55,520 nt of DNA from Candidatus Aenigmatarchaeota archaeon (GTDB lineage Archaea > Aenigmatarchaeota > Aenigmatarchaeia > CG10238-14 > SpSt-28), in contig JAWBMD010000005.1 of the NCBI GenBank assembly GCA_039000985.1, positions 1 to 55,520 on the forward strand. The letters are read 5' to 3'. Position numbers and translations under genes: made by a program. Numbering within the stretch: position 1 is the first letter of the stretch; each line of letters opens with the position of its first letter. The notes below the pieces were generated by a model. It did not search any database, was not told where the DNA came from, and was given only the letters and a program-made list of their open reading frames with translations. Shown piece by piece: positions 7,636-46,231 of the stretch.

Positions 7636-7765
7636 AAATAATTCTATTAAAATTGGAATATTTATTTGTTATTCCTATTAATTCGTTAATTTTAGTGGTA
7701 AAGTTAAATGAATTAGTAATAAAGCTTAAAAAATAGGAAACCATCTAATAAGCTTATAAAAGAAT

Positions 7766-10306: not shown

Positions 10307-10337
10307 TTTATTATATACTAACAAGTAAAAATAAATT

Positions 10338-12027: not shown

Positions 12028-12937
12028 TAATTCTGTAATTTTTATATATTATGGCAGAAAAAAAAGCTAGCATTACCAACACTATTCTTATCGGAAAATA
12101 TAAGTTAAAAGTTGTTTCACGTTTCTCATTTCTTTCTATCATACACTTAGCTAAACAGATTAATAACTCTTTAAAAACAGTAGTGAGTGGGAAATAACGT
12201 AAATGAAATATGAGAGCATTTTTAGTTGTAACAAAAATTCTCAAAAGTTTATTTACTTTCTCTACAGTTGTTTTTGACACTTTATGTATAACATTCGAAG
12301 TACCACAATAAAAAACCTTGAATCCTGCCTTTTTGGCTCGTATGCAAAAGTCACAATCTTCTGCAGAGAAGAGAAAAACCTCATCTAAATAACCTATTGT
12401 TTTAAAAACCTCAGTATTAATTAATACGCAACCAAACTGAGAAATATCAACTTCTTTAATAATGTCATGTTGGCCTCTATCTTTTTCTAATCGACCAACT
12501 ATTCTTATTCGATTGTTTATTAGCGATGTATAAGCATGCTGAATGGTTGTTCTATCAGGGTAAAGCAACTTACATCCTACAATACCAATTCTTTCATTTT
12601 CCTTAAAAACATTAATTACTTTGAGTAACCAATTCTTATCAAAGAATTCCAAATCATTATTCAACAAACCTATATATTTAGGGGAATACTTACTTAGAAC
12701 ATATTTAATTCCTCTATTCATACCACCTGCAAAACCATAATTTTTTTCTAATTCTAAAACTTCAACATCAGGAAAATGTTTTTTTATATATTCAACACTT
12801 CCATCCTGAGAACCATTATCTATTACCAATACTTTATAGTTTGGATATTTCGTAATTTTTAAGGTACGTAAACAATCCTTTGTCAATTCTTTACCATTCC
12901 AATTCAAAACCAGTAAACAAACCAAAGGTAAGTTCAT
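12020..12937 (-). CDS. Family 2 glycosyltransferase (paralog of 11038..12027)
   Basis: LLVLNWNGKELT...VIDNGSQDGS...LNNDLEF...AEDCDFCIR. Its 3' end overlaps the convergent GT2 gene by 8 nt. Confidence 0.85.
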   Translation of the reverse strand: MNLPLVCLLVLNWNGKELTKDCLRTLKITKYPNYKVLVIDNGSQDGSVEYIKKHFPDVEVLELEKNYGFAGGMNRGIKYVLSKYSPKYIGLLNNDLEFFDKNWLLKVINVFKENERIGIVGCKLLYPDRTTIQHAYTSLINNRIRIVGRLEKDRGQHDIIKEVDISQFGCVLINTEVFKTIGYLDEVFLFSAEDCDFCIRAKKAGFKVFYCGTSNVIHKVSKTTVEKVNKLLRIFVTTKNALIFHLRYFPLTTVFKELLICLAKCMIERNEKRETTFNLYFPIRIVLVMLAFFSAIIYKNYRIIK

Positions 12938-23948: not shown

Positions 23949-25853
23949 ATGAAAAGAGAAATAGAAGTATTCATATGGATATTTTTAATACTGATCTTTT
24001 TGTTAAATTTACATGTATCGTTTAAATCACCAATAAGCTTTGGAGATGAAGGATTTCATTCCTTTGTAGCAAATTATATAGCTAAAAAATTAGAATATCC
24101 TGCCTATATTAAAGAAACAGGAGGAGAAACTTATTTAACATTTGAAAGACCTCCATTTTGGAATATATTTGAAGCAAGCTTTATTTTCATTTTTAGATTT
24201 ATAGATGATAGCATTATAATAAAATTTTTAACACCATTTTTAACTTTTTTGCTTGGCTTATTTACATTTTATTTAGCAAGAAGAGCTTTTAATGAAATTA
24301 TAGCTTTGATAACTTCTATTCTAATATCAACAATACCTTCAATTGTTACATATGCTGTCCTTTTTTATACAGATATATTAGCAACACTCTTTTACACTTT
24401 GTTTTTCTTTTTATTTTTAATTGGATATAAAGAAAAGAACAAAAAATTTTTAATATTAAGTGCTGTTTTTGCTGGTTTTGCTTTTTTAACAAAAGTAAAT
24501 TCAATAGTTTTATTTGCTTTTTATCCTTTAGTTTTTTTAATAAACAAAAAAGATTTTAAACTATATTTACAATGCTTTCTAATATTGCTTTTAGTAACAT
24601 CTGGCTATTTCATAAGAAATTATTTTGAATATGGAACACCATTTTGTAGAGAAATTCCTTTAATAGGAAAATATTTATTTGACTTAGAAAAATGTAAAAA
24701 AGAAATATATAAAAGCAAATATAGCTTTGAAGGAAGAACAGAAGAAGTTGGTTCTGAAATGAGTGTTTTTAGAATGGGTATTACAAATTATTTAAAATTT
24801 GCTTATGGTGATATAGATCAAGCACAATACTATATTCCATTTCTTTTCTTTTTTGCTGGAATTCTTTTCTCTTTAGTATCGAAAGAAAAATACTTCCGAG
24901 AAATAATACTTATTAATCTTTTATTTTTCTTAATCATATTTTTCTCATCAACAGGTAGAAGTGAAGATACAGCAAGATATACATTAATTTTTGCTCCTGT
25001 AATAGTTTTGATACCATCAATATTTGTTAATGAGTTCTTTGAAAGATATAAAAAGAAAAATTTCCTTCTTTTATTTGTTCCTATTTTTTTCCTCTTGCTC
25101 TACTTTTCAAAAAATATTGTTGCTACAATAATTTCGCTTATATTACTAATAACATCAATTCATTTTTACTTAAAAAAGAAGAAAGAAGAATTTACAATAC
25201 TTACATCTATTGCTACAATAATAATAGTTTCATCAAGTATTTTAACAAACATTAATAGCTTAAACTTAATAATTCTTTACCCAGTAATAATACTCTTAAC
25301 AATTTTTTTAATCGGATATTTTATAACCAAAAAACTTTATGAAAATGCTTGCTTAATAATTTTAATATTTTGTGTAGCTATAATTAGTATACAAAACTTT
25401 AATGATAAGCTTACTACAATGGAATCTGTAAAAAGATTTTCTAATTTATTTTTTGAAGCTTGTGAATGGGTAAAAAATAATTTGCCGGAAAATTCAAAGC
25501 TTATGACAATATGGGCATCTAGAGCTTTATATAATTGCAAAAGAAGTGCAGTTTCAAATATTGCTGATATAAGTGCTTCAAGAGATATAAATATAACATT
25601 AAAAGCAATAAATGAAATAGGGATAACCCATATATTTATACAAAAATTTAGCATTGGTAATAGGGATTTGGTAGAATCTCAAAATATAGAATTTGTTAGA
25701 TTTTTAGAAAGAAATAATAATTATTTCAAAAAAGTTTTTGAAAATCCAGTAAATGATGCATGCTTTGAAAATTGTTTGAATGGAATTTATATTGAATTGT
25801 ATGGTAGATGTCCTTGTGATGGTAATATAATTTATGAGGTAGTAAAAAGCTGA
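23949..25853 (+). CDS. GT-C fold membrane glycosyltransferase (PMT/ArnT-like)
   Basis: 634 aa with many TM helices. FGDEGFH sits in the first loop, resembling the acidic loop-1 motif of PMT/ArnT-type enzymes. The C-terminal ~150 aa look soluble. I saw no WWDYG-type AglB motif. Confidence 0.55.
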   Translation: MKREIEVFIWIFLILIFLLNLHVSFKSPISFGDEGFHSFVANYIAKKLEYPAYIKETGGETYLTFERPPFWNIFEASFIFIFRFIDDSIIIKFLTPFLTFLLGLFTFYLARRAFNEIIALITSILISTIPSIVTYAVLFYTDILATLFYTLFFFLFLIGYKEKNKKFLILSAVFAGFAFLTKVNSIVLFAFYPLVFLINKKDFKLYLQCFLILLLVTSGYFIRNYFEYGTPFCREIPLIGKYLFDLEKCKKEIYKSKYSFEGRTEEVGSEMSVFRMGITNYLKFAYGDIDQAQYYIPFLFFFAGILFSLVSKEKYFREIILINLLFFLIIFFSSTGRSEDTARYTLIFAPVIVLIPSIFVNEFFERYKKKNFLLLFVPIFFLLLYFSKNIVATIISLILLITSIHFYLKKKKEEFTILTSIATIIIVSSSILTNINSLNLIILYPVIILLTIFLIGYFITKKLYENACLIILIFCVAIISIQNFNDKLTTMESVKRFSNLFFEACEWVKNNLPENSKLMTIWASRALYNCKRSAVSNIADISASRDINITLKAINEIGITHIFIQKFSIGNRDLVESQNIEFVRFLERNNNYFKKVFENPVNDACFENCLNGIYIELYGRCPCDGNIIYEVVKS

Positions 25854-25883: not shown

Positions 25884-26759
25884 ATGGCAGAAACAATAGT
25901 TAAGCTATCTACATCTGTCTTTGGTTATTTATCATTTTTTTTAGCTACTTTATTCCCTGATTTGCAAAGCAATTTAAAAAAAGCAAAATATAAAAGAATG
26001 AGTTTTGAGCATATTTCTGTTTCTTTATTTTATGGTTTTTTATCATTTACAATTTCACTTCCATTTCTCTCAATAGTTACAAGTTTTTTTACTCAATCGG
26101 CAATAGTTGGTTATATGCTTTCCTTAATAATATCTTCTTCACTTTTTATTATGATTTTTTTTATTGTTTTAAGTTATCCAAAAGCTGTTGCTAAAAGTAT
26201 TAGTAAGGAAGTAGATAGCTATCTCCCATTTTTAGCTCTTAACATGTCACTTCTAGCTTCTGCAAAAATTCCATTTGATAGAATTATTTTAATGATTGGA
26301 AGATTAAAATTACCAAAAAAAGTAGAAAAAGAAATAAGCCCTTTAGTTTATGATATTGCTAATTTTGGCTTAGATGTAAGAAGAGCTATAGATAGAGAAA
26401 TAGAAAGGGTAGCTAGTGAAAATTTCAAAGAGCTTTTATATGGAATATCTTCTTTATTAAAAACGGGTGGAGATTTATCAAGCTTTTTAAGAGAGAAATC
26501 AAAAACATATATAGCAGAATATAGAAGAAAATTAATGGAATTTGCAAGAAAGCTTGGTGTTTTTACACAAATATATTTAATGTTAATAATAGTTGCATCA
26601 ATATTTTTAACTATATTATTAACTGTATTTGGTGCTATGCAAGAAATTGGTGAAACTGCAGTAATACTTCAATTCTTTTTAATAGCTGTTGTTATACCAA
26701 TGGTTTCAATAGCATTCATGTTCTTCCTTAAGTCAATAACACCAACAACACTTTATTAA
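25884..26759 (+). CDS. T2SS-F domain platform protein, FlaJ/TadB-C-like (first half)
   Basis: LPFLALNMSLLASAKIPFDRII...ISSLLKTGGDLSSFLREKS, followed by TM helices. Confidence 0.7.
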   Translation: MAETIVKLSTSVFGYLSFFLATLFPDLQSNLKKAKYKRMSFEHISVSLFYGFLSFTISLPFLSIVTSFFTQSAIVGYMLSLIISSSLFIMIFFIVLSYPKAVAKSISKEVDSYLPFLALNMSLLASAKIPFDRIILMIGRLKLPKKVEKEISPLVYDIANFGLDVRRAIDREIERVASENFKELLYGISSLLKTGGDLSSFLREKSKTYIAEYRRKLMEFARKLGVFTQIYLMLIIVASIFLTILLTVFGAMQEIGETAVILQFFLIAVVIPMVSIAFMFFLKSITPTTLY

Positions 26760-26760
26760 C

Positions 26761-27717
26761 ATGGAAAATAAAATAAAAATATTAATAGCTTCGCTAATAA
26801 TTTCAACTTTTTTAATATTGCTGGGAATAATAATGAACGATATAAGAATATTGGGAAATTCTTTCATAATCTCAATTGTTTTAATAATAGTTCCGCAATC
26901 AATATTTTATTATTTGGAATTTAGAGCAGCTAAAGAAATGGAGGAAAAATTTCCCGATTTTTTAAGAGATGTTGTTGAAAATATAAGAGCAGGAGTACCA
27001 TTATATCAAGCAATTTATTTTTGCTCTAAAAATGAGTATGGAAAGGCATTAACAAAAGAAGTAAGAAGAATGGCAAACAAAATAAGCTGGGGAATAAAGC
27101 TTGAAAAAGTTTTAGATGAATTTTCAAAAAGAGCTTATATTAGTAAAAAAATACCAATAGCTGTACAAATGATAAAAGAAGCTTACATTTCTGGCGGGGA
27201 TGTTGTAAATATTATGGAATATTTATCAGAAAGCTTAGTAGAAATAGAAAATGCAGAAAAGGAAAGAGCAAGCATTTTAAATCAATATGTATTTCTCATG
27301 TATACATTATCCATAATATTTTTAATAATAGTTGTTGCACTACATAGATTTTTAATTCCATTATTTTCAACAGTTGGAGGTGGAACTTTGCTTGAAGCGG
27401 GCAGAATGGAAAATCCTTGTATAAATTATGATTACACTGATATTTTGGGTAATTTTGTAAATGGAAATATTCCTGGATTTGTTTGTAGTTCCTTATATTT
27501 ATTTTCCTCTATACTATCCATAAATTTTGAAAATACATCCTCTTATTACTTAACACTATTCTTTTTAATGATAATAGTACAATCTACATTCTCTGGTTTA
27601 GTTGCTGGAGAAGTTTCTCATGGAAGCTTAAGAGCTGGAATAAGACATGCATTAACATTATTATTCATAAATTCTGGTATATTTATACTATTAGTCGGAC
27701 TAAAAATTCTTGTATAA
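26761..27717 (+). CDS. T2SS-F domain platform protein, FlaJ/TadB-C-like (second half)
   Basis: FPDFLRDVVENIRAGVPLYQAI...IKEAYISGGDVVNIMEYLSESL, plus TM helices. It starts 1 nt after the previous stop. Confidence 0.7.
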   Translation: MENKIKILIASLIISTFLILLGIIMNDIRILGNSFIISIVLIIVPQSIFYYLEFRAAKEMEEKFPDFLRDVVENIRAGVPLYQAIYFCSKNEYGKALTKEVRRMANKISWGIKLEKVLDEFSKRAYISKKIPIAVQMIKEAYISGGDVVNIMEYLSESLVEIENAEKERASILNQYVFLMYTLSIIFLIIVVALHRFLIPLFSTVGGGTLLEAGRMENPCINYDYTDILGNFVNGNIPGFVCSSLYLFSSILSINFENTSSYYLTLFFLMIIVQSTFSGLVAGEVSHGSLRAGIRHALTLLFINSGIFILLVGLKILV

Positions 27718-30091: not shown

Positions 30092-30368
30092 GAACGGGAA
30101 GAACGCTTTTGCTCGATAGTGTATAGTTACAAGCTTTTCTGTTGAGCATCCTTTGCTATGTTATCTCATAAGCATAGATGATACAACTTACTCTTGCTAC
30201 CTTCCGGTCCTGGGAGATTCGTTGTATCATCTATCCTATGAGGCACAGCTTCATTGTTATCTCAACAGGGCTTGTAAGTATACACTACCTTACAAAAGCT
30301 TTCGAGTCGGCCATTATGGACCATTTGCCGATATAGGTGAGGCCCAGCCACCCAGCTCTATCTTCCCT
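30092..30368 (-). ncRNA. Signal recognition particle RNA (archaeal 7S)
   Basis: The minus strand reads GGGAAGAUAGAGCUGGGUGGCUGGG.... It contains CCCAGGACCGGAAGGUAGCAAG, matching the conserved helix-8 motif (CAGGUCCGGAAGGAAGCAGC in E. coli 4.5S). Long helix-5 complementarity is visible: GAUAGAUGAUACAAC/GUUGUAUCAUCUAU, CUGUUGAG/CUCAACAG and GGUAGUGUAUA/UAUACACUAUC. The 5' GGGAAGA pairs with the 3' UCUUCCC. Confidence 0.8.
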
Positions 30369-30412
30369 TTATTCACAAATTTTATTTATTTTTTTTATCT
30401 AAATTAATTTTT

Positions 30413-30970
30413 ATGAGTAATAAAGAATATAAAGTTAGTATTGAAAACATAGTATCCTCTATAAAGTTTCAGGAAAAAATACCATTAGATGAGTTGATAA
30501 ATTATAGCGAAAATATAGAGTATGAACCTGAGCAATTTCCAGGAGCTGTTTATAGAATAGAAAATATGCCTGTTACATCTTTAATTTTCAGTTCTGGAAA
30601 AGTAATATTAACAGGAGCAGAAAATACAGAAATGATAAATCAAGCTGTAGAAAAGGTAAAAAAGCTTTTAGAGAAAGCTGGTGTAAAAACTAGAAATATG
30701 GAGGAATTAAAAATAGAAAATATAGTAGCATCAACCAAATTTCCATATAGAATAAATTTGGATGTTTTGGCTTATAATTTGGAAACTACAGAATATGAGC
30801 CTGAGCAATTTCCAGGATTAATTTATAGGGATAAAGAATATAATTTGGTTTTACTTGTCTTTAACTCTGGAAAAGTAATATGTACTGGTGGAAAAAATGT
30901 AAAGGAAGTTAGAGAAGTTATAGATAAATTTTATAAAATTGTAAAAAAAGTTAAGGCTTTTGTAGAATGA
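30413..30970 (+). CDS. tbp: TATA-box binding protein
   Basis: Two direct repeats, each with IENIVSS/IENIVAS ... EYEPEQFPG ... SGKVILTGA/SGKVICTGG. Confidence 0.95.
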   Translation: MSNKEYKVSIENIVSSIKFQEKIPLDELINYSENIEYEPEQFPGAVYRIENMPVTSLIFSSGKVILTGAENTEMINQAVEKVKKLLEKAGVKTRNMEELKIENIVASTKFPYRINLDVLAYNLETTEYEPEQFPGLIYRDKEYNLVLLVFNSGKVICTGGKNVKEVREVIDKFYKIVKKVKAFVE

Positions 30971-32374: not shown

Positions 32375-32665
32375 ATGGTAAAAATTTGCCCAAAATGTAA
32401 TTTTGAGAATTCCAATGAAGCTAGATTTTGTAGGTTTTGTGCATGGCCAATAATAGATGAACCTATAATAGAAAAGGAGAAAAAGGCAGAGGAAATCGAG
32501 CAATACAGTCAACCTACCGAAAAGCAAGAGTATTTAGAGGAAGAACAAAAGATGCCTGTTAAAAAACCATATTTTTCTAAATCTACAATAGCTTTAATTG
32601 TTATAATATCTATTGAAATTTTTATAATAGTTTATCTTATAAAAACTAAACTAATTTTTATATAG
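32375..32665 (+). CDS. Zinc-ribbon protein with C-terminal TM anchor
   Basis: CPKCNFENSNEARFCRFC, then an acidic linker, then the TM helix IALIVIISIEIFIIVYLI. Confidence 0.55.
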   Translation: MVKICPKCNFENSNEARFCRFCAWPIIDEPIIEKEKKAEEIEQYSQPTEKQEYLEEEQKMPVKKPYFSKSTIALIVIISIEIFIIVYLIKTKLIFI

Positions 32666-32750
32666 TTTACATTTTAGTTTATATTTGTTTAATATTTTTT
32701 ATAAAACAATATAAAATGATTATACAAAAAATTTTTAGAAAATAAATATT

Positions 32751-35057
32751 GTGAAAGAAAATAAATTAGCTGAGATCTTATTCGACAGTGATGAAGTAGT
32801 AAAAGTAGAGGGTACTATCGATTTATCTAAATATAGATTTAGAAGAAAAAAGTTAAGCATTGATGAAATGCTAAATTTACTAAAAGAACATCCAAGTTTA
32901 GGGTTTAATGCTTATCAAAGATTGTATGCTGCTGTAAAAATGTTTGGAAGAATAGGAGATAGATGGAGAATATTAGATTATCCAATTATTAATCCTTATG
33001 TAGATAAAACAGAAGTAGGAGCATTATACGGAATAGAAAAAGAGTTTAATTCAATTGTTAATTACCTTAAAGGAGCTAGTGAAGGAAGACATGAAAAAAG
33101 AAAATTACTTGCATTATTTGGTGATGTAGGTTCAGGAAAAACCAATACAGTTAATTTGTTATCAGAAGCTTTATCCGCATATGGTACATTTCCAGAAGGA
33201 GAAGTATACACAGTTGTTTTTGATTTAAATGGATTTCTAAAATCTATAAAAGATGATAGTTTAAGAGATAATATAGGAAAGTTTATAAATGAAAAAATTC
33301 CGGGGGATGTTAGAGTGATAGAATGTCCTGCACATGAAAACCCTGTTTCCACTCTATTAGCTCTTAGCGAGGAAAGAATTATAGATGAAAATGTTAACGA
33401 AATTTTACAAGAAATAAATTCAAATGAAAAATACCAATGGAGAAAACTTGATGTCCCCTGTGCACCGTGTCCGCACTGTTCATTCGTTTTGGAATTATTT
33501 GGTGAAATATTAGATAAAAATAGAGATAAAATTGAAATTAAAGAAGCTATAAGGAGGTCAATATACTTTATTAATTTAAGAACACATGGAGTAAATCCAG
33601 AAGTGACAACAGTAGAATTTAGAATTCCTGATAAGAGATCTGAAGTAAGAACGATAGCATTTGAAGGTAGTTTTAGCTTGGAGAGAGTAGGAAAACTAGG
33701 TAGTAAAGAACATCCATTAGTTATAAACTTAGGTTTAGCCGGTGAAATTGATAAACCTTCATGTCAAAGAGGTTTACTTCATTTAACAGAGCTTTTAAAA
33801 TCTGATGAAGATATGATAAAACAATTATTAGATTTTGTAGAAACTCATAGGATTCGTATTGGTAGCAGGAATTTATCTGCATACTTAGATGCCGTGATGA
33901 TTTCTACTAGTAATCTCGACGAACTTATGAAAATAAGAGAAAGAGTTACTAAGACAATAGAAGACAGAATGTATAAAGTGGTTTACCCACATCCGGTTAT
34001 AATCGATGATGTTGAAAAGGCATTAAAAGGAAGAATATTTGCTGGAGAGACCTATCATATACCTCCACATTTTCTTAGGTTATTATCAATAATTTTTGTT
34101 TTATCTACACTAGAAGAACCTACAGAAATTAAAATAGGAAGCAAATCAGTAAAAATGAGTTTAATAGAAAAAGCACTTCTTTATAATGGAGAAGTACCAG
34201 CAGGAATGGAAGGAGATGCAGCTATTTTGGTACAGGAGTTAAGGAGAGTAGCTGAAAACAAAGATATTCGTGAAAGAAAAGAAGGTTTAATTGGAATTTC
34301 TATGCGATTAATGCAAGATTTAGCTTCTTATTTAAGAGGAGAAATAGAAAAAATAGTGAGAAAAAATAGTGAGAAAGGATATAAACCTTGTATAGCTATA
34401 TTGGAAAACGAATATTCAGATGGTATAAAAGGTTTTTTAGCTGATTTTTTTAATACAAACCTAGGAAAAGAGGAAGATAGAGAAACAAGAAGTAAAATAA
34501 TTCAGAATATATTACCTGTTGTTTTTGAACCAAATGAAAAGTATGGTTTATATTTACCACACCTTGCTAGTGATGTTAGAAGGGCAATTGTTGGAGATGA
34601 GAAAATTATTGAAGTAGCTATTACATATATTTCAATGATTATGGCGTCGGTGAAGAGAGATTCAGTTTTCGTGCATCCGATTCGCGGCACTCAACATGTT
34701 GTAGATGAAAAATTTATGGAAAGTATAGAAAAATACATGGGCGTATCATCTTCTTACAGGGAAAATTTTGTTGCAAAATTTAATTATCAGTTGAAGGCAA
34801 TAAAGAAATTGTATGGAACTGAAAAAGAGGCCATATTAAATTTTATTAAAGACTTTTTAGAAGAAGAAAAGAATTTTAGGAAAGCTATAGAGGAATATAC
34901 AGTTAGACAATATATTTCTGAGATAGCAAGGGATATTTCATCTGTTTATAATCCAAGAAATGAAGAATTAGTAGCAAAGTTAGTTAAAGAGCTTGGATAT
35001 TGTAATGAGTGTGCACAATATGCTATTAACATAGCAAGTAAGTTGAGACCAAAGTGA
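32751..35057 (+). CDS. prkA: PrkA/YeaG-family P-loop protein (putative serine protein kinase)
   Basis: 768 aa with a GTG start. YGIEKEFNSIVNYLKGASEGRHEKRKLLALFGDVGSGKTN parallels the YeaG N-terminal/Walker A region as I recall it. Confidence 0.8.
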   Translation: MKENKLAEILFDSDEVVKVEGTIDLSKYRFRRKKLSIDEMLNLLKEHPSLGFNAYQRLYAAVKMFGRIGDRWRILDYPIINPYVDKTEVGALYGIEKEFNSIVNYLKGASEGRHEKRKLLALFGDVGSGKTNTVNLLSEALSAYGTFPEGEVYTVVFDLNGFLKSIKDDSLRDNIGKFINEKIPGDVRVIECPAHENPVSTLLALSEERIIDENVNEILQEINSNEKYQWRKLDVPCAPCPHCSFVLELFGEILDKNRDKIEIKEAIRRSIYFINLRTHGVNPEVTTVEFRIPDKRSEVRTIAFEGSFSLERVGKLGSKEHPLVINLGLAGEIDKPSCQRGLLHLTELLKSDEDMIKQLLDFVETHRIRIGSRNLSAYLDAVMISTSNLDELMKIRERVTKTIEDRMYKVVYPHPVIIDDVEKALKGRIFAGETYHIPPHFLRLLSIIFVLSTLEEPTEIKIGSKSVKMSLIEKALLYNGEVPAGMEGDAAILVQELRRVAENKDIRERKEGLIGISMRLMQDLASYLRGEIEKIVRKNSEKGYKPCIAILENEYSDGIKGFLADFFNTNLGKEEDRETRSKIIQNILPVVFEPNEKYGLYLPHLASDVRRAIVGDEKIIEVAITYISMIMASVKRDSVFVHPIRGTQHVVDEKFMESIEKYMGVSSSYRENFVAKFNYQLKAIKKLYGTEKEAILNFIKDFLEEEKNFRKAIEEYTVRQYISEIARDISSVYNPRNEELVAKLVKELGYCNECAQYAINIASKLRPK

Positions 35058-35063
35058 AGAATA

Positions 35064-36920
35064 ATGCTGGAATTCCAGAAAATTCTTTCATTAAGGGAAT
35101 TTTACAACCATGTAAAAGAAGGTAAATATTCCTATTTAAATGTTTATGAAAGATTATACAGAAAATTATCTGAAGATTCAATTGGAGTATATCCTGGTAT
35201 AAAATTTTATAAAAATTTTTATAAAAATAGCACTATAAAAGGTTTACCAGAAGTTATAAATAAACTAGTAGATGCATTATTTATAGGCGATACTCTTTTT
35301 AAAAGTAGAGGAAAACTATCAATTCTATATCTTTATGGGCCAACCGGTTCTGGTAAAACATTAATTGGTAAAGCACTTGATAATATTTTTTATCATGATT
35401 TAGAAGAAAACCCGTGTATGAAAGTTGTTAAAATTATGAAAAAAGAAGATAATACTATAACAAGCATAGAGCCTGTATGTATTTATGGCGAATATCCATT
35501 AGCTGTTTTCACTTCAGATACACTAAACTTAACAAGTGATATAAAAAGTGAAATTACTAAAGAAACAAATTTTAATTATAAAATGAAGGCATGTGATAAT
35601 TGTATTAATGAAGTTAATAATTCGATCGTCGGAGAAATATACAAGTTACAACGTGATATAGAATTTCTCACAACAACTACTTTTAAACAAAAAATAAGTT
35701 CTAACACTTTATTAAAAATGCTAGATTCACTTTATGTAGTAGAGTATAAGCCTCAAAATTTAAGTATAGATTTCTCTAATGAAAAAATGCTTGAAATGAT
35801 CGAAGGTATAGTAAAAAAGAGTAATCGTGGTATACTACATATAAATGCAGATAATGTAAAAAATTTCAAGGATCAAAATGTTCAATTTCTTTTAAGAATT
35901 GCTGATGGACAAGTAACATTTGAAAACGCCTCGTCTGTTAGTTTAGATATGTTACCAATTTTATATTCTAATGAAGCTTTTTTCGAGTGGATAAAGGGTA
36001 ATACTGTGCTATATTCTAGAGTAATACCAATACCTGTCAGAAGATTATTGTCATATAGTTTAGAATCTGAAGTTCTAAAAAGCTTTATATTACCATTTTC
36101 TCATATTTCACCAAATTCATTGGAATTGTATTCGATGTTTATAATAGCTACTAGAATACAAGGTAGTTATTCCAATGAGATTGAGAATCTTTTAAGATTA
36201 TACGAAAAGTACGAAAATTATAGAGTATTGACAGAAGAGGAATTTAAAAAGATAAAAGAGAGATTAATGGGCGAAGTATTAAAAGATGGATGGGCACAAG
36301 GTTTAACATCAGAGGAAGCTGTTAAGTATCTTTATTCTTTGACTAGTGAAGATAGAACAAAGTGCTTAACACTAAGTACCATAAATAGTTTAACGAATAG
36401 TATAGTTTCAGAAAGAGGATATAAAATTCAAGCAGATATTATAAACAAAAAAATTGTTGAACATGCTTTAAAGGATATTATTATTGCTACAATGCTTGCT
36501 ATTGAAGATAAATTTCTAGAAAGCTTAGAAATGGAATTCGAGGAATATAAAAAATTGCACTATATGAAATATGCAAAAGGAGAAACATTTGTTAGAAAAG
36601 CTGGTGAGCTAATTAGTATAGATAGCGAAATGGAGAATATTCTCAAAAGACTTCTATTAGTTGATAAAAATAAAATTGATAATATTTTGACAACGGAAGG
36701 CGGAGCGGTAACTTTCTATTCTCTATTAAAAGAAAATCCCCAATTAATTGGGGCAGATGAAAGGATTAAAAAATATATTGACTGGAAAAATTTCGAACAT
36801 CTTGTTGGTGAAGGTATTGAAAGAAAAGAAAAAATAATAAACAAAATGATTACATTAGGTTATTGTAGAGAATGTACTATTTCTGCAATTAAAATAGCTT
36901 TGGAGAAATTGATAACATGA
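35064..36920 (+). CDS. Divergent second PrkA-like P-loop protein
   Basis: 618 aa. KLSILYLYGPTGSGKTLIGKAL lies in the same relative context as in the first paralog. Its C-terminal LGYCRECTISAIKIALEKL resembles LGYCNECAQYAINIASKL of the upstream gene. Confidence 0.65.
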   Translation: MLEFQKILSLREFYNHVKEGKYSYLNVYERLYRKLSEDSIGVYPGIKFYKNFYKNSTIKGLPEVINKLVDALFIGDTLFKSRGKLSILYLYGPTGSGKTLIGKALDNIFYHDLEENPCMKVVKIMKKEDNTITSIEPVCIYGEYPLAVFTSDTLNLTSDIKSEITKETNFNYKMKACDNCINEVNNSIVGEIYKLQRDIEFLTTTTFKQKISSNTLLKMLDSLYVVEYKPQNLSIDFSNEKMLEMIEGIVKKSNRGILHINADNVKNFKDQNVQFLLRIADGQVTFENASSVSLDMLPILYSNEAFFEWIKGNTVLYSRVIPIPVRRLLSYSLESEVLKSFILPFSHISPNSLELYSMFIIATRIQGSYSNEIENLLRLYEKYENYRVLTEEEFKKIKERLMGEVLKDGWAQGLTSEEAVKYLYSLTSEDRTKCLTLSTINSLTNSIVSERGYKIQADIINKKIVEHALKDIIIATMLAIEDKFLESLEMEFEEYKKLHYMKYAKGETFVRKAGELISIDSEMENILKRLLLVDKNKIDNILTTEGGAVTFYSLLKENPQLIGADERIKKYIDWKNFEHLVGEGIERKEKIINKMITLGYCRECTISAIKIALEKLIT

Positions 36921-38299
36921 GTTTACCTGTCGATCCTGTTGGTTCCTCAAAAATAAAATATAAGGAAAAGCTAGAAAGGGATAAAAATAAAGCAAATAAC
37001 ATTTTTCTACCATATCAAACTGATGAAGGCAAAATTTCATTACTTCAAATACCTTTTTTTGAGATAGAGGTTTTAGAATATGGTCCTAGATCCGATAGTC
37101 CAGTTTTAAAAAGTGGTTCATTACCCAACAAAGGAATGGGAGCACCTTCAATAGGTACTGGAGGTACAGGTATTTCTCAACCATCAGATTCAGGCGAAAT
37201 CTCTTTACCAGGTTCTGGTCTTCCAGGCTCACCACTTTATCCAGTAGAAGACGAAGGAGAAGGAGAGGGGAAGTTAGCTGGTGTTATACCAATGGATCCC
37301 ATAACAGGAAAACCTATTGAAGAAACAGTTAATATTGATGAGATAGCAAAGGAATTGGAACTTGAATTAATAAAGCCAGGTAAGATAGAAACTGAGTATG
37401 ATATAGAATTCCCATCTGTTGGAAAATCTGGTCCAGAAAATTTATTAGATTGGGATACTACGGTTATGTCATCTATAGAAAGACAAATGTTATTTAAAAT
37501 TATTTTGGATAAAAGAATTACTGAATTAAATGAAAAGAGAAAGGAATTAGAAGTAAAGTATAAGAATAAAGAAATAAGTGATGTAGATTATTCTATAGAA
37601 ATAGATAAGATAGAAAAAGCAGAGAAAAACTTGAAAGCATTATTAAAATATCCATTAGAAAATCCATTTAGGATTAAATCAATAGAAAAAGAAGATGAGA
37701 GATATATATTACCTGAATTTATACCTTTAGAACATAAAAGTTGTGTAATAATGTTTATTAGAGATATAAGTGGTAGTATAACTTTAGATCAATTAAAGGC
37801 ATCTTCAAAATTAAGTAGTTGGATAGAAGAATGGGTAAAAAAGTTTTATGAAAATACAAAATTAATATACATTCTCCATAACTACGATGCTTGGGAGGTT
37901 GAAAGAGAAGATTATTATGGTGTAGTTGAAAGTGGTGGCGGTACTAGATTTTCTTCGGCATATGAAATAGTTTTAAAGATTTTTATGGGAGAAAAATATA
38001 GTAGTAAAGCTAAGGAAATAAAGAAAATTAATCCAGATATAATTGATGTTTACATTGTTCAAATAACCGATGGTTTTGGACAATCTAACGAAGAAGAAGT
38101 AAAACCACTTAAAGAAATAATGCCAAAAATAACAAGATTCTGCTATGTACAAGAAGAACAAGGTGGTTATATATCAGAATATAAAGAATATCTTGAAAAG
38201 CTATTTGGGAAAGAAAAATTAAGAACAACATCTCTTAAGGGATATGAGGATGAAGATATAAAAAATGCTATGAGAGATTTATTTGGTAAAAGAAAATGA
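36917..38299 (+). CDS. DUF444 (YeaH/YhbH)-family protein with vWA-like domain
   Basis: It has a G/P/S-rich acidic tract (GMGAPSIGTGGTGISQPSDSGE...EDEGEGEG), a MIDAS-like IRDISGSI, and ITDGFGQSN. 4-nt overlap with the upstream gene. Confidence 0.75.
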   Translation: MSLPVDPVGSSKIKYKEKLERDKNKANNIFLPYQTDEGKISLLQIPFFEIEVLEYGPRSDSPVLKSGSLPNKGMGAPSIGTGGTGISQPSDSGEISLPGSGLPGSPLYPVEDEGEGEGKLAGVIPMDPITGKPIEETVNIDEIAKELELELIKPGKIETEYDIEFPSVGKSGPENLLDWDTTVMSSIERQMLFKIILDKRITELNEKRKELEVKYKNKEISDVDYSIEIDKIEKAEKNLKALLKYPLENPFRIKSIEKEDERYILPEFIPLEHKSCVIMFIRDISGSITLDQLKASSKLSSWIEEWVKKFYENTKLIYILHNYDAWEVEREDYYGVVESGGGTRFSSAYEIVLKIFMGEKYSSKAKEIKKINPDIIDVYIVQITDGFGQSNEEEVKPLKEIMPKITRFCYVQEEQGGYISEYKEYLEKLFGKEKLRTTSLKGYEDEDIKNAMRDLFGKRK

Positions 38300-39909
38300 A
38301 AACAAGAGTTTTTTCTGGTTATAAATTGGATGAATATTGGACAGAGATAGCCCAGAATATAGCTGAAAAAATGGAAAATAAATATAAATTGGATTTACCA
38401 AACATAGATTATTATTTTATTTCCTTAGATGAAATGGCATCCATAAAAGCTACACATGGATGGATTGTTTTTCCACATTCCTGGGAAGAAGGGCAATCAT
38501 ATTATCTGAATAAAATGATACAAAAATTGTATGGAGAAAGTGTTTTTGAGATAGTGGTTAATAGTTATGATGAGATAAGGAATACATCAGTAACTGCATA
38601 TATTAACAAAAGTATTAGTGATTCTGCTAAAAAACTTGTTATTGCACATGTATTGGGTCACGCGTATCTCTTTAAACATAATAATATTGAAAAGAAGTTT
38701 GAGGTAAACGATCCGGAATCATTTTTATATAGACTATCTCAAAAGATAAATAGATATGAGTATTTGTATGGAATAGAGGAAGTACAAGATTTTATAGAAA
38801 CTATAAAACATCTTTCAACACTAATAGATTTCTATCCACCTATAGAAGTAAAAGATGAGAGTAAAAAAGAAAGGAAGAAAATTATTGAAAAAATCCTAAC
38901 TAAAGAAATGTTTAAAAAGAAGATACCTGAGAAAAATGAATATGATATACTAGGTTTTCTAGCAAATTATGCTCCATTAGAAGATTGGCAAAAAGATTTA
39001 TTACTTGATTACAGGGAGTTATTCTATTTTTTATATTCTAGAGCTAGAATAAAGATTTTACATGAAGGATTTTCATCTTTAATAGAACTTTTATATTTTT
39101 TAGAATCTACTGAAGAAGAATTACCACTAAAGGAATGGATACCCTACTCTAGATTAATGGTATCGCTTAGAAGAGAAGTGCCAATAGGATCTTCAACAAT
39201 AAAAGAAGGATTTGACCCATATTTTTTAGGTTATTATTTATTGCTTTATGGATTAATAAAGTTAACTTTTAAAGAATATGGTGAAATACCTAAAAAGAAG
39301 TGGTATGAAAGAATAAGAAGAGAAGATTTTATAGATATTATTGAAAAGCCCGAATTCTTAGAAGCATGGGAAGAAGTTTTGGAGAAAGTAAAAGCATATG
39401 ACGATTTTCTATTAATAAAAGAGCTTTTTGATGAAGAGTTCTTCAACTCTATAGCTAGGAAATATTATTTTGTTTATGAGGGAGAAAATTATCCATGGAA
39501 CAAAAAAATAGTTGTTTCAAGAAGTTATGAAGATGTTTATAAAACTTTCCTTTTTTCTTCATTTAACATGAAATTACCTAGAGTTTACATACCAGAGGAT
39601 GGGGGCATGTATAATAAAAAAGAGAATGAAAAACTTGGTGAACTTTTGTTAATTCAAGATACATCATTCCCAGAAAGTTTAGGTATATCTAAGCAACAAT
39701 TAACTTTGGATGAAAGAAAGGAGAAGGAGGTTTTAAAAGCTTTGTTTAAGATATGGAAAAAGCCAGTTAATCTTAAAACATTTACAGTAGAGTTTGAATA
39801 TACTCCATTAGATCCATTTGATCCATCTTCACTCGAGGAAGCAAATGGAAAAATTAAAGAAATAATAGATAGATACGATGGCGAAAGTTTTAAAACAATT
39901 AATGTATAA
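38296..39909 (+). CDS. spoVR: SpoVR/YcgB-family protein
   Basis: 537 aa with VIAHVLGHAYLFKHNN and LHEGFSSLIE. 4-nt overlap with the upstream gene. Confidence 0.75.
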   Translation: MKTRVFSGYKLDEYWTEIAQNIAEKMENKYKLDLPNIDYYFISLDEMASIKATHGWIVFPHSWEEGQSYYLNKMIQKLYGESVFEIVVNSYDEIRNTSVTAYINKSISDSAKKLVIAHVLGHAYLFKHNNIEKKFEVNDPESFLYRLSQKINRYEYLYGIEEVQDFIETIKHLSTLIDFYPPIEVKDESKKERKKIIEKILTKEMFKKKIPEKNEYDILGFLANYAPLEDWQKDLLLDYRELFYFLYSRARIKILHEGFSSLIELLYFLESTEEELPLKEWIPYSRLMVSLRREVPIGSSTIKEGFDPYFLGYYLLLYGLIKLTFKEYGEIPKKKWYERIRREDFIDIIEKPEFLEAWEEVLEKVKAYDDFLLIKELFDEEFFNSIARKYYFVYEGENYPWNKKIVVSRSYEDVYKTFLFSSFNMKLPRVYIPEDGGMYNKKENEKLGELLLIQDTSFPESLGISKQQLTLDERKEKEVLKALFKIWKKPVNLKTFTVEFEYTPLDPFDPSSLEEANGKIKEIIDRYDGESFKTINV

Positions 39910-39933: not shown

Positions 39934-40266
39934 ATGGAGTATATAGAAGATAAAAAATATATAAGGAGAAAATCAATTGATACTTTTGTAAACGAGAGAA
40001 AAGATTATTTGTTAGATATACTAAAAAAAGAAAGTGGTAGAAATATTTATCTTTTACTTCAAGCGACATTAATGGAATCAAGAGAAGGAAGAGATATTTT
40101 TCAGACAGATTACGCACTATTTTCATTTGAGAATGATGATAAAGCCAAGAAGTATGTTAGTGAAAACTATAAAATAGTCTATGGTAAGAATAAGATAGGA
40201 TTAGTCAGATTAGCTTTAACAAGTTCTGGAGATTTGGATTATATACCAATATTATATAGCGATTGA
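39934..40266 (+). CDS. Hypothetical 110-aa protein trailing the SpoVR gene
   Basis: ORF 24 nt downstream of spoVR on the same strand. The opposite-strand ORF 39932..40126 is low-complexity. No recognised family. Confidence 0.45.
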   Translation: MEYIEDKKYIRRKSIDTFVNERKDYLLDILKKESGRNIYLLLQATLMESREGRDIFQTDYALFSFENDDKAKKYVSENYKIVYGKNKIGLVRLALTSSGDLDYIPILYSD

Positions 40267-40292
40267 TAACCAAATTTTTCTATTTTTTCTAG

Positions 40293-40646
40293 CTATTGAT
40301 TACCTTCATCAACGATCATTACTTTTACTTTAATTGGTTTAATATACTTTAAAATTCTTGTAATTTTACAAACATTTTTTAATGAATCTGTATCAAATCC
40401 ATATATTTCCGGTTTTCCCCACCAGATAAGCCAGCATTTAAATCCATAAAATTTTATTGATTTCATTTTTGAAGTAAATTTATAAAAATTCCTATTCATT
40501 TGCTGGAAAATTTTTTATTTCCTTTGTTATCTTGTATTTTAGATAGACGGCTATTGTTAATGCTATTGTAGTTTTTCCGCAACCATTCTGTTCCAATATA
40601 AAAACTTTTTCACTTTTTTCTACATGTGGGTTTTTTATTTCAAGAA
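40293..40646 (-). pseudogene. Relic of a small P-loop NTPase (ParA/MinD-like?)
   Basis: The piece directly after the FKBP stop has no ATG and reads ...KVFILEQNGCGKTTIALTIAVYL...NFPANE-stop. After a frame shift comes the 68-aa ORF 40293..40499, with IYGFDTD and KVKVMIVDEG (Walker B-like). Confidence 0.4.
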
Positions 40647-43810: not shown

Positions 43811-46231
43811 ATGATAAAGAGGAACAATTCTAATAATTCATATTTTAAATATTTTTTAATGTATTTTTTGGTTTGCTCATCTGTTTTAATGTATTTTTTA
43901 GGTAATAGATTTCTTATTCTTTTTTTATTAGCAGTATCTGGAATTTTTTTCTTTAATTGGAAAAGAAGAGAAATTATTATTTATTATCTTTTTATTTCTT
44001 TTATAGTTATCTATAGATTAATTCTTGGAAATTTTCCAGTAATAATATTAGCTTCTACTCCAGTTCCATCCCCACCAACTGTAGTTGATAGTCCTGATCC
44101 TCAGCAAGGAGGAGGAACTATAACTTTTAGTTGTAGTCCAACTGCTTGTCAACCAGGAGCTTATGATGAATTAATTAAACTTTTAATTTGTAAAAATAAT
44201 TCTGCGTCATGTGTTTTAGGAAGCCAATGGAGCTATAGAAGACCAATTACAATAAGCAATACTCAAAATTCTAATACTTTAACTGATTATCAAGTTTTAG
44301 TTACTAATCCAATTTATAATGAAACTGGCTTGATTGCAAGCTGGCATTTTAATGAAGGAAGCGGAACTATTGCTTTTGATTCCTCTGGTTATAACAACAA
44401 TGGTAATTTGGTTAATGGCCCCACTTGGGTTAATGGAAAATTTGGGAAAGCATTAAGTTTTGATGGAAGCAATGATTATGTTTCTACTGCTAATCAATTT
44501 AGTAATCCTCAAACATTTTCAATAGTTGTTTGGTTTAAAACAACTAGTAAATCTGGACGTAAAATTATTGGATTTGAAAATGCTCAAACAGGAACACGTA
44601 GTACTAGTTACGATAGACACTTATATGTTGGTACAGATGGTAAGCTCTATTTTGGTGTTCATGATGGATCAACTAGAACTATTTCTACTACAACTACAGT
44701 TACTGATGGTAATTGGCATTTTGCAGTTGCAACATTTTCTTCTAATGTAATGCGTTTATACTTAGATGGTAATTTTGTTAACTCATCGTCTACAGGAAGT
44801 GCACAAAATTACAATGGTTGGTGGAGAATAGGCTCTTACAAATGCGCTGGATGGCCAAATTGTGGAGATGGCTATTTCCCTGGTATAATAGATGAAGTTA
44901 GAATTTATAACAGAGCTCTATCTGCGTCTGAAATTCAAGCTTTATATCAAGCAAAAGCAAGATTGGATTATGGAGATATTAGATTTACAGATTCGGATGG
45001 AACACAATTAAATTATTGGCAAGAAGCAGATGGTAAATTCTGGGTAAAAGTTCCTTTTATTCGAGCTAGATCAACAAAAACAATTTACTTGTATTATGGA
45101 AACCCCAATGCTACTTCTGTAAGTAATGGGGATAATACTTTTATATTCTTCGACGATTTTTCAACCACCGATACTAACAAATGGCCAACTAGAGATACTC
45201 ATCTCCGTGTTTCTAATGGACTATTGGTCGGTTCTTCTACTGTAACAGAAAGCGGGTTGTGGTATTGGATTTCAAAGTCGCTTAGTTATGGTAATTTTAG
45301 TATCGAAGTTCTTCAGCGCACACCAAATGCAAATGGTGCTGAAGGTACTGTGTTGAGAGCAGAAACTAGTGGAGGCGGATACTATACTTTTAACAGCGAG
45401 GATTCACAAAGAGCTTTTCGTCTCTATCGCGGTACAACACAACTTGCCTCACTAACATCCCAACCGACAGCTACAGATTGGCAAATTCTTAGATTTAATT
45501 TTAATGGAACTATGCTAGAAGGCTATCGTGGCAATTCTTTAAAAGTCAGTGCTTCAGATTCAACATATAAAAGCTTTACTTTATTTAGATTAGGTCATTT
45601 AGATGGTTCAACCGCATATTCGGCAACTACCTATATAGATTGGGTTCGTATTCGCAAATACACTTCTCCAGAACCAACAACAAGCATAGGAAATGAAGAA
45701 ACTAATATAGCTTCTAATTATCTTTGGAATCAATCTTCAGCTGTAGCAAGCAATCCAACAGCAACTTATACTTGCCCTTCTTGTACATCCGCTACAAACA
45801 CTTATTATGGAGTTACTTATAGTGTTGATGAAGCAGTATGGACAAATTTTACTCAAGCTTTAAGTTTTACTTGTAAAAAAGAAAGTTCTTGTCCTTGTAC
45901 TAATCATAGAGAATGTTTTAATTATTGTTCAAATTGGATTTATAAGGATGGTACTTGTTATGAGGGCAGATGCTGGAATGCACATGAAGGCAGTCAATAT
46001 GGTGCACAACAATCATGCATAAATGGTATTTTGCTTGAAAATAATCAAAATTATAATAGATATTTAAATGTTAATGGTGAACTTTACTATTGTAAAGGTT
46101 CTGATAATTCCGATTCTCCCTATCCATTTGTTGAAAATGTATCTTCTAATAACAAAGTAGGATTTTGTACTTGTTTAAGTGATGGAAATTGGAGTTGTAC
46201 TAGACCTAAAGTAAAAATCAGAATTATTTAA
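43811..46231 (+). CDS. Membrane-anchored surface protein with LamG (Laminin_G_3), DUF2341 and Cys-rich C-terminal domains
   Basis: The N-terminal part has 3 helices followed by a PVPSPPTVVDSPDP linker. The LamG region reads WHFNEGSGTIAFDSSGYNNNGNLVNGPTWVNGKFGKALSFDGSNDYV...DGNWHFAVATF...MRLYLDGN...IDEVRIYNRALSASEIQALY. The DUF2341-like region reads DIRFTDSDGTQLNYWQE...FWVKVPFI...IYLYYGNPNA. The C-terminus is rich in Cys. Confidence 0.8.
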   Translation: MIKRNNSNNSYFKYFLMYFLVCSSVLMYFLGNRFLILFLLAVSGIFFFNWKRREIIIYYLFISFIVIYRLILGNFPVIILASTPVPSPPTVVDSPDPQQGGGTITFSCSPTACQPGAYDELIKLLICKNNSASCVLGSQWSYRRPITISNTQNSNTLTDYQVLVTNPIYNETGLIASWHFNEGSGTIAFDSSGYNNNGNLVNGPTWVNGKFGKALSFDGSNDYVSTANQFSNPQTFSIVVWFKTTSKSGRKIIGFENAQTGTRSTSYDRHLYVGTDGKLYFGVHDGSTRTISTTTTVTDGNWHFAVATFSSNVMRLYLDGNFVNSSSTGSAQNYNGWWRIGSYKCAGWPNCGDGYFPGIIDEVRIYNRALSASEIQALYQAKARLDYGDIRFTDSDGTQLNYWQEADGKFWVKVPFIRARSTKTIYLYYGNPNATSVSNGDNTFIFFDDFSTTDTNKWPTRDTHLRVSNGLLVGSSTVTESGLWYWISKSLSYGNFSIEVLQRTPNANGAEGTVLRAETSGGGYYTFNSEDSQRAFRLYRGTTQLASLTSQPTATDWQILRFNFNGTMLEGYRGNSLKVSASDSTYKSFTLFRLGHLDGSTAYSATTYIDWVRIRKYTSPEPTTSIGNEETNIASNYLWNQSSAVASNPTATYTCPSCTSATNTYYGVTYSVDEAVWTNFTQALSFTCKKESSCPCTNHRECFNYCSNWIYKDGTCYEGRCWNAHEGSQYGAQQSCINGILLENNQNYNRYLNVNGELYYCKGSDNSDSPYPFVENVSSNNKVGFCTCLSDGNWSCTRPKVKIRII

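Follow-up and report, generated by a model that had tools for sequence, protein, structure and literature searches.

The 55,520-nucleotide (nt) stretch of Candidatus Aenigmatarchaeota archaeon contig JAWBMD010000005.1 analyzed here (the window) carries four consecutive genes that encode two PrkA-type ATPases, a DUF444 protein and a SpoVR protein. We refer to the two PrkA groups as PrkA1 and PrkA2 and to the four proteins of the window, in gene order, as P1 to P4. We read the locus as most likely an operon that encodes the stress and starvation module PrkA-DUF444-SpoVR (YeaG-YeaH-YcgB) in an archaeal version with two ATPases. All four proteins score above the Pfam gathering cut-offs of the families to which an earlier note on this DNA had assigned them, and we regard these identities as close to certain. 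The PrkA-DUF444-SpoVR trio is among the most widespread conserved bacterial gene sets of unsolved biochemical function, with links to nitrogen starvation, stationary phase, osmotic stress and sporulation. The Aenigmatarchaeota are a phylum in the kingdom Nanobdellati, i.e. DPANN.

Family assignment of the four proteins

P1 matches both Pfam domains of its family, AAA_PrkA (PF08298; 68.2 bits, E=8.9e-19) and the PrkA C-terminal domain (PF06798; 47.4 bits, E=2.7e-12; gathering cut-off 25 each). Its identity to bacterial PrkA is about 22-23%, and an hhalign comparison joins the PrkA1 group to bacterial PrkA over 614 columns (E=3.4e-50). P1 also matches the solved PrkA structure PDB 9xip (E=7.5e-25). 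Against the NCBIfam equivalog model for Escherichia coli YeaG (NF011999) it scores 46 bits, where the cut-off is 576.

The second protein had been described in the earlier note as divergent and PrkA-like. Membership of the PrkA family stands, and the description understates the likeness, as P2 is homologous over its full length and has a P-loop more canonical than that of P1, with one loop missing. Pfam detects AAA_PrkA in P2 (35.7 bits, E=6.4e-9; gathering cut-off 25) and leaves the C-terminal domain (PF06798) undetected, NF011999 gives no match, and BLASTP can align P1 and P2 only at the P-loop-bearing N-terminus and the extreme C-terminus. Profiles built from the PrkA2 family reach much further. 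With hhalign the family aligns over ~569 columns to bacterial PrkA, through the C-terminal domain (E=3.8e-35), and over ~569 columns to the PrkA1 group (E=7e-26), and its profile covers 9xip at full length (residues 45-686, E=3.1e-36). At profile level, then, P2 is a full-length PrkA homologue; the C-terminal domain is retained in full, including the motif GYCREC, the counterpart of GYCNEC at the C-terminus of P1. The AlphaFold2 model of P2 has a predicted local distance difference test score (pLDDT) of 90.4 and a predicted template modelling score of 0.87. Foldseek returned only generic AAA+ neighbours for it (RFC, RuvB, CbbX, McrB, HslU and LonC) from a PDB copy without 9xip.

P3 matches DUF444 (PF04285; 107.1 bits, E=1.4e-30) and P4 matches SpoVR (PF04293; 100.9 bits, E=8.9e-29), the gathering cut-off being 27 in both cases. 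P3 stays far under the cut-off of all NCBIfam equivalogs (e.g. 70 vs 468 for TIGR02877). The SpoVR_C domain (PF24755) reaches 13.9 bits in P4, under its cut-off of 27.6, and the C-terminal region of P4 is divergent. The profile hidden Markov model (HMM) search suggested in the earlier note as a check thus recovers AAA_PrkA/PrkA, DUF444 and SpoVR in the four proteins.

Gene order and inheritance of the module

Relatives of P2 were collected with an exhaustive phmmer search of 1.84 billion representative proteins, which yielded 29 clusters at E<=1e-3. This HMMER search was used instead of homologue searches by word index, which gave 2, 5 and 5 matches for P2, P1 and the family alignment; these were near-empty because the K/E/I-rich composition defeats the index. 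A pattern scan of genome contigs with the PrkA2 alignment gave no match, and the generic P-loop pattern probably filled much of its list of 600 stretches. The few named members of the PrkA2 family come from Aenigmatarchaeota, from a Parvarchaeota metagenome-assembled genome (MAG) and from an unclassified 'archaeon CG10_big_fil...' MAG. The family is rare and so far known from archaeal MAGs of the DPANN type alone.

All seven other PrkA2-bearing lineages examined (L001, L009/L010, L011/L012, L013, L014, L015 and L099) keep the order PrkA1-PrkA2-DUF444-SpoVR on one strand, which answers the synteny survey proposed in the earlier note. The seven include the Parvarchaeota MAG and span both sequence subgroups of PrkA2, and the hallmark genes on their contigs (PolB, primase small subunit, GINS, ribosomal protein L15e) are archaeal. 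With one custom-HMM scan applied uniformly, the gene order was confirmed in every lineage except L099, which was fetched later. In none of the seven was a PrkA2 found without an adjacent PrkA1.

In a neighbour-joining tree PrkA1 and PrkA2 each form a group with 100% bootstrap support (bacterial PrkA, 67%), and the branching within PrkA1 is mirrored by that within PrkA2. When lineages are compared in pairs, the identities of the four proteins correlate with r=0.95-0.97. PrkA2 evolves fastest, with 51% identity between the window and L001 vs 64-68% for the other three proteins. The mirrored subtrees and the correlated identities indicate that the PrkA duplication is old, older than the divergence of these DPANN lineages, and that the four genes have been inherited together and have co-diverged since.

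As a bacterial control we examined 80 SpoVR loci from a scan of GTDB genomes; all counts for this set refer to the matches listed. A single PrkA followed by DUF444 and SpoVR was found at 40 of the 80 loci (33 of these with 4.5 kb or more upstream), SpoVR without a partner in the fetched DNA at 28 (18 with at least 4.5 kb upstream), and a partial or rearranged set at 12. Two PrkA genes were found at none. The 18 lone SpoVR loci (L022, L025, L029, L031, L034, L036 and 12 others) belong mainly to Phycisphaerales and to other Planctomycetota and neither PrkA nor DUF444 is detected in the flanking DNA fetched; the trio of those Planctomycetota is evidently split, as ycgB is in E. coli.

A different layout is seen on a metagenomic contig with bacterial-looking neighbours (L006, ENA k141_44952, 4488-12040), where the order is PrkA(740)-DUF444-SpoVR-PrkA(840). 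The second PrkA of this contig has a PrkA2-like Walker B region (NCGILHIHDAF), yet keeps both the loop and the Pfam C-terminal domain. From its layout, a second PrkA has been recruited more than once. PrkA (P1), DUF444 (P3) and SpoVR (P4) also have matches among the PHROGs phage families, PrkA2 has none, and the jumbo phage RsoM2USA carries PrkA and SpoVR (PMC8504454).

PrkA2 lacks the conserved loop before Walker B

Both paralogues keep the Walker A lysine, the acidic residue that ends the Walker B strand, the sensor-1 Asn and conserved Arg residues (K130, E347, N388 and R406 in P1; K98, D263, N303 and R319/R326/R327 in P2). They differ in how strictly the ATP site is held. The PrkA2 Walker A is near-invariant, GP[ST]GSGKT, and the P-loop of PrkA1 is relaxed in several lineages (GPTATSKS, GPAGTGKN, GPPGSAKT). 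The Walker B strand of PrkA2 reads hhhhD (h, hydrophobic) followed by D, E, N or K (ADN in the window), and that of PrkA1 reads hh[S/T/N]E, like the bacterial EFVE.

The main difference lies just before Walker B. A conserved loop present in PrkA1 and in bacterial PrkA was found in 0 of 25 PrkA2-family sequences. Consistent with this, the distance to Walker B, measured from the internal CxxC motif to the NRG motif, has a median of 64 residues in PrkA2 and of 94 in PrkA1 and Thermomicrobium PrkA; in the window it is 77 residues in P2 vs 102 in P1. PrkA2 is, by alignment, a PrkA without this loop. In P1 the region equivalent to the Bacillus T217/Tyr-Gly region is present, with F304, G306 and HPL invariant. 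In Bacillus subtilis the loop corresponds to peptide 210-235 with T217, at which phosphorylation by PrkC is inhibitory; the phosphomimetic exchange T217E leaves PrkA without function (PMC9512850). For Bacillus anthracis PrkA, a model assigns the equivalent loop as pore loop 1, with a Tyr-Gly pair (PMC13001217).

In the MAFFT alignment E305 of P1 (nt 33663-33665) falls opposite T217, a pointer only, as the loop alignment is uncertain. The T217-equivalent position holds a native Glu in three Aenigmatarchaeota-type PrkA1 sequences and Gly in other PrkA1s. The pentapeptide SIDFS, which P2 shares with the B. subtilis phosphopeptide, was weighed as a retained part of the loop and dropped, since three alignment methods disagree on it.

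Two groups of conserved Cys residues are shared by archaeal PrkA1, many PrkA2 sequences and the solved 9xip, and are lost in E. coli YeaG. The first comprises CP.HE.P and C..C within the AAA+ insert, and the second a Cys in the middle of the C-terminal domain together with the C-terminal GYC..C (P1 residues 192-243, 547 and 751-754; P2 residues 139, 177-180, 434 and 601-604). The C-terminal C..C is present in 8 of 8 PrkA1 and 13 of 25 PrkA2 sequences, being mostly lost in PrkA2 subgroup 2. These groups could be zinc or redox sites.

Motifs of the DUF444 and SpoVR proteins

P3 begins with a short basic N-terminal motif, followed by a linker that is acidic and rich in Gly, Pro and Ser, an ELELxxxKPGK motif, a K/E-rich helical segment and a C-terminal von Willebrand factor A (vWA)-like domain. 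The linker and the DISGS sequence had both been pointed out in the earlier note, the latter as resembling a metal ion-dependent adhesion site (MIDAS), and both are present: the linker spans residues 56-125 (37 of 70 Gly, Pro or Ser) and DISGS residues 283-287. The MIDAS residues (Table 1) are invariant in 11 archaeal and bacterial sequences, E. coli included. The Pfam scan listed no VWA match for P3. We tentatively assign DUF444 to the vWA group from the MIDAS motif and from its clan placement in Pfam.

In P4 the residues H118, H122, N129, E257, G258, P308, Y309, G312 and D370 are invariant in 11 archaeal and bacterial sequences. A metal site formed by the H-x3-H...E pattern is a reasonable guess from these motifs. 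The AlphaFold2 model of P4 is of moderate quality (pLDDT 68.2), and no PDB neighbour was found by fold (best E=0.38) or by sequence profile. Archaeal SpoVR proteins have HEGF vs NEGW in E. coli, and many bacteria share HEGF. HEGF[AS] was accordingly rejected as an archaea-specific SpoVR motif, a genome scan with the archaeal motif having given bacterial loci only, among the matches listed.

Proposed mechanism and alternatives

The earlier note held that the module has no established molecular mechanism. This is still so; the kinase label has been contradicted and a protease claim is disputed (PMC9512850, PMC13001217). B. anthracis PrkA has been classed as an AAA+ ATPase that oligomerises with ATP (PMC13001217). 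We propose that PrkA1 and PrkA2 co-assemble into a mixed AAA+ ring, served by DUF444 as a MIDAS adaptor and with SpoVR as client or effector, and put the probability of this specific mechanism at roughly 0.35. PrkA1 would give the ring a regulatory or substrate-contacting loop and PrkA2 a strictly conserved ATP site, at which hydrolysis may be altered because its Walker B reads ...AD-N. By analogy with MoxR-vWA pairs, the N-terminal part of DUF444 and its flexible Gly/Pro/Ser-acidic linker would dock on the ring, and its vWA-MIDAS domain would clamp an acidic residue of a partner. SpoVR, probably metal-binding, would be either the remodelled client or an effector that is switched on. ATP hydrolysis would be spent on remodelling or activating a protein at nutrient or stress transitions, and the machine would not be a protein kinase. 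In a non-sporulating DPANN archaeon the output would most likely be entry into, or survival of, starvation or host-free dormancy.

Several points weigh against this mechanism or the features on which it builds. A single PrkA suffices in bacterial systems, so the chemistry of the module does not demand a hetero-ring, and ATP-dependent casein degradation has been reported for B. subtilis PrkA (PMC9512850), a result that would class it as a protease instead of a pure remodeller. Mirrored trees and identity correlations would equally arise if the genes of one operon had simply been inherited together vertically. The missing PrkA2 segment is placed differently by MAFFT, hhalign and HMMER, and what is robust is the absence of ~20-35 residues and of the loop motif. 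For the vWA fold of P3 the sole PDB profile match is marginal (the vWA domain of ITIH1, E=0.28) and ends at its MIDAS, and the SpoVR metal site is deduced from a motif in a protein with a mediocre model (pLDDT 68) and no fold neighbour found.

The paralogues may instead work apart, with PrkA1 as a homo-oligomeric ATPase and PrkA2 as a separate nucleotide-sensing regulator or as a rival motor that competes for DUF444 and SpoVR. The control loci that run on one PrkA (40/80), the PrkA-DUF444-SpoVR-PrkA order of L006, in which a second PrkA has been added in another way, and the fast evolution of PrkA2 all fit such an arrangement. It is nevertheless unlikely, given that PrkA2 always stands beside PrkA1 in the seven other lineages, that the two genes are 6 nt apart in the window, and that both paralogues keep the sensor-1 Asn and the Arg residues that act across AAA+ subunit interfaces.

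A Lon-like ATP-dependent protease, in which the PrkA ring would unfold and degrade specific regulators in starvation with DUF444 and SpoVR as substrate adaptors, draws on the finding that casein degradation by B. subtilis PrkA depends on ATP and on Walker A (PMC9512850). After PrkA itself, Lon AAA+ modules are the best PDB matches of the PrkA2 profile (E about 1e-5), and LonC and HslU appear among the fold matches of P2. The Lon matches extend over the P-loop region only (profile positions 75-128), though, and Pfam detects no Lon_C or other peptidase domain in P1 or P2. Moreover, B. anthracis PrkA showed no proteolysis once highly purified, the activity seen before having come from a contaminating hydrolase (PMC13001217). 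We consider this reading improbable.

There is likewise little probability that the module is a metallochaperone of the MoxR/vWA style, in which the AAA+ ring and the MIDAS adaptor would load or exchange a metal cofactor in SpoVR, then an active enzyme. An adjacent AAA+/vWA-MIDAS pair is a hallmark of cofactor insertion by CbbQO, NorQD, CoxDE and BchID, SpoVR has an invariant H-x3-H with a set of E, N and D residues, and a few zincin/YbeY-type metallo-hydrolases occur among its non-significant fold matches. Against this, PrkA is not a member of the MoxR family (no AAA_3 match, AAA_5 faint at most, and neither listed for P1 or P2), the SpoVR fold matches are at noise level (E at least 0.38, probability at most 0.18), and metal binding is known for no SpoVR. 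Finally, a Ser/Thr protein-kinase signalling cassette, which database names (PrkA family serine protein kinase), historical annotation and reports of phosphorylation in vitro by E. coli YeaG and by B. subtilis PrkA (cited in bioRxiv 072470 and PMC4664914) imply, is very improbable, since two dedicated studies, of B. subtilis (PMC9512850) and B. anthracis PrkA (PMC13001217), detect neither kinase activity nor autophosphorylation, the AAA+ Walker A is the sole functional ATP site, and no Pkinase-family Pfam match is found in P1 or P2, even at E up to 10 for P2. An anti-phage defence system was also considered and rejected, as PADLOC gives only marginal matches at the level of the P-loop (E at least 4.6e-4).

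Whatever the chemistry, several DPANN phyla with strongly reduced genomes keep the module intact, co-evolving and with its motor duplicated, which argues for a basic role other than sporulation. In DPANN this role is probably survival of nutrient or host deprivation. The split into a loop-bearing and a loop-less ATPase marks separable parts of PrkA, and the proteins, probably thermostable if a hot-spring origin of the MAG is assumed, are attractive for reconstitution and cryo-electron microscopy. The picture of the module would be fundamentally changed only if the mixed PrkA1/PrkA2 ring were confirmed.

Operon layout and genomic surroundings

The four genes form a block of 7159 nt (Table 1) with a 6-nt gap between the first two and a 4-nt ATGA-type overlap at each of the other two junctions. 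The earlier note had given four co-directional genes over 7.2 kb with this spacing, and the open reading frame (ORF) coordinates agree exactly. GC content of the window is mostly ~27% (range about 22-35% in 2-kb windows), and because the DNA is so AT-rich, ORFs of 460-768 amino acids (aa) are not attributable to chance. The gap and the two overlaps count for translational coupling of the four genes as one unit. The 85-nt region 5' of PrkA1 is the sole gap within the block long enough to permit a promoter. TATA-like strings are plentiful there and near-meaningless at 27% GC, and alignment with L001 revealed no convincing conserved block. Downstream, the gene after the T-runs is convergent (40293-40499, minus strand).

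Table 1. Coordinates of the module, its motifs and nearby features in the window
Feature	Position (nt)	Strand	Remarks
PrkA1 gene (P1)	32751-35057	+	GTG start, 768 aa
P1 Walker A, GDVGSGKT	33120-33143	+	aa 124-131; lysine K130
P1 conserved loop before Walker B	33627-33749	+	about aa 293-333
P1 Walker-B-like LLHLTE	33789-33791	+	position of E347, at which the motif ends
PrkA2 gene (P2)	35064-36920	+	618 aa
P2 Walker A, GPTGSGKT	35337-35360	+	aa 92-99; lysine K98
P2 Walker B, ILHINAD then N264	35832-35855	+	
DUF444 protein gene (P3)	36917-38299	+	460 aa
P3 linker	37082-37291	+	aa 56-125; 37/70 residues Gly/Pro/Ser, including EDEGEGEG
P3 MIDAS D283-x-S285-x-S287	37763-37777	+	
P3 MIDAS G341-G342-T343	37937-37945	+	
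P3 MIDAS D385-G386	38069-38074	+	
SpoVR protein gene (P4)	38296-39909	+	537 aa
P4 H118/H122 in AHVLGH	38647-38661	+	
P4 E257-G258 in HEGF	39064-39069	+	
Archaeal signal recognition particle (SRP) RNA gene	30095-30368	-	118 bits
TATA-binding protein (TBP) gene	30413-30970		archaeal hallmark
96-aa ORF	32375-32665	+	Zn-ribbon match below Pfam gathering cut-off; hydrophobic tail/transmembrane segment
Intergenic region	32666-32750	+	85 nt, AT-rich, 5' of PrkA1; presumed promoter
110-aa ORF	39934-40266	+	24 nt 3' of SpoVR; possible fifth cistron, membership uncertain
T5 and T6 runs	40275-40288	+	directly 3' of the 110-aa ORF; plausible archaeal oligo-T terminator

The archaeal host named in the earlier note is borne out by the archaeal SRP RNA and TBP genes and by the nearest protein relatives of the window, which carry the name Candidatus Aenigmatarchaeota archaeon; a tiny genome is plausible from membership of DPANN. 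An 84-aa TTG ORF on the opposite strand over the SRP RNA gene (30153-30407, +) is almost certainly spurious. The earlier note had also drawn attention to a winged helix-turn-helix (wHTH) regulator and a membrane Zn-ribbon protein just upstream of the module. Both ORFs exist on the same strand; their family matches are sub-threshold, and nothing ties them to the operon. For the 149-aa ORF (+) all wHTH matches lie below the Pfam gathering cut-off (upstream-ORF E values 4e-4 to 9e-3), and it is kept only together with the entire TBP-DUF211-VIT1 neighbourhood, more distant loci having unrelated neighbours. The 96-aa Zn-ribbon/transmembrane ORF is without a counterpart in L001, the closest operon-bearing relative, where the flanking genes lie just 88 nt apart; the ORF was gained or lost recently and stands outside the module. 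We therefore rejected both genes as parts of the module, the Zn-ribbon ORF because it is missing in L001 and the wHTH ORF because it follows the synteny of its whole neighbourhood.

The 110-aa ORF downstream gave no Pfam, NCBIfam or PADLOC match. An ORF of 107-120 aa directly follows SpoVR on the same strand in the window and in L001 (16510-16833), L010 (15149-15511), L013 (15164-15502) and L015 (12438-12767), and is absent from the subgroup-2 loci L011, L014 and L099. These small ORFs are homologous within close pairs only (window and L001 at 40% identity; L010 and L013), with an hhalign probability of 0.06% between groups. A conserved fifth gene as a homologous component was rejected, as these ORFs share their position and have no detectable similarity across lineages. 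By Pfam labels, the other neighbours in the window include an 806-aa Laminin_G_3/DUF2341 protein, a T2SSF-family membrane protein pair and a PMT_2 glycosyltransferase, among 43811-46231, 25884-27717 and 23949-25853 (all +), cell-surface functions typical of DPANN and unlinked to the operon.

Comparison with known systems

The bacterial systems yeaG-yeaH/ycgB (E. coli) and prkA-yhbH/spoVR (Bacillus) consist of the same three families, usually in one operon, and the Walker A/B region, the MIDAS motif and the invariant SpoVR residues are conserved between them and the archaeal locus. They differ in having a single PrkA, where the window has two, and the NCBIfam equivalog cut-offs are widely missed here, which makes the archaeal proteins family members and not equivalogs. 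Cofitness among yeaG, yeaH and ycgB is high in six bacterial species (r>0.7), the trio behaving as a single genetic unit, and the phenotypes vary from species to species (bioRxiv 072470); YeaG is required to survive prolonged nitrogen starvation (PMC4664914). The solved structures 9xip, 9xiq and 9xir ('Serine protein kinase', 692 aa) share full-length homology and the Cys motifs CP.HE.P, C..C and C-terminal GYC..C; unlike PrkA2, 9xip has the loop before Walker B.

Two further comparisons are functional analogies. The MoxR-vWA pairs RavA-ViaA, CbbQ-CbbO and NorQ-NorD each combine an AAA+ motor with a vWA-MIDAS adaptor, and the PrkA-DUF444 pair may work in a similar way: an AAA+ gene stands beside a putative vWA gene with an intact MIDAS, which would tether the motor to an acidic residue of its client. 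PrkA itself, with its large helical domain at the C-terminus and its inserts rich in Cys, belongs to another AAA+ lineage and is not a member of that family. Hetero-hexameric AAA+ rings such as RuvBL1/2, Pex1/6 and Yta10/12 would resemble PrkA1/PrkA2 in being built from adjacent or co-inherited paralogues with complementary retention of motifs, a pattern suggestive of alternating subunits, by analogy only.

The closest parallel is the haloarchaeal signature cluster of two PrkA genes, invariably with DUF444 and SpoVR, described by Anderson et al. in 2011 and reported to be absent from non-halophilic archaea (PMC3102087). The statement in the earlier note that some archaea have a duplicated PrkA was thus already published for haloarchaea (PMC3102087). 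Expression data give weight to the module in non-sporulating archaea, as prkA2 ranks within the top 25 genes by expression in natural populations of Haloquadratum (PMC9684190). Like the present locus, the haloarchaeal cluster has two adjacent PrkA genes with DUF444 and SpoVR in a non-sporulating archaeon and is functionally uncharacterised; the present host differs in being a DPANN archaeon (Aenigmatarchaeota). A tblastn search with P1 and Thermomicrobium PrkA against a plasmid/chromid collection detected no haloarchaeal replicon, and our literature search found no paper that places the PrkA-DUF444-SpoVR module in DPANN archaea. Acidic composition of the haloarchaeal type is found in none of the 29 phmmer clusters related to P2. 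DPANN PrkA2 appears at least very distant from haloarchaeal PrkA2, as judged by the composition of these clusters and with the haloarchaeal cluster compared by its published description. More tentatively, and on balance doubtful, DPANN PrkA2 could be distinct from its haloarchaeal namesake, a lineage-specific loop-less AAA+ partner in an obligate alternating ring with PrkA1, in which one subunit type would engage or regulate substrate and the other would mainly bind and hydrolyse ATP. If so, DPANN would possess a separate variant of the module, a compact and probably thermostable four-protein set with which to reconstitute YeaG-YeaH-YcgB function. The archaeal version is, in any case, no longer a haloarchaeal speciality: the two-PrkA architecture was already known from haloarchaea, and its extension to DPANN together with a loop-less PrkA2 family is what the present locus adds.

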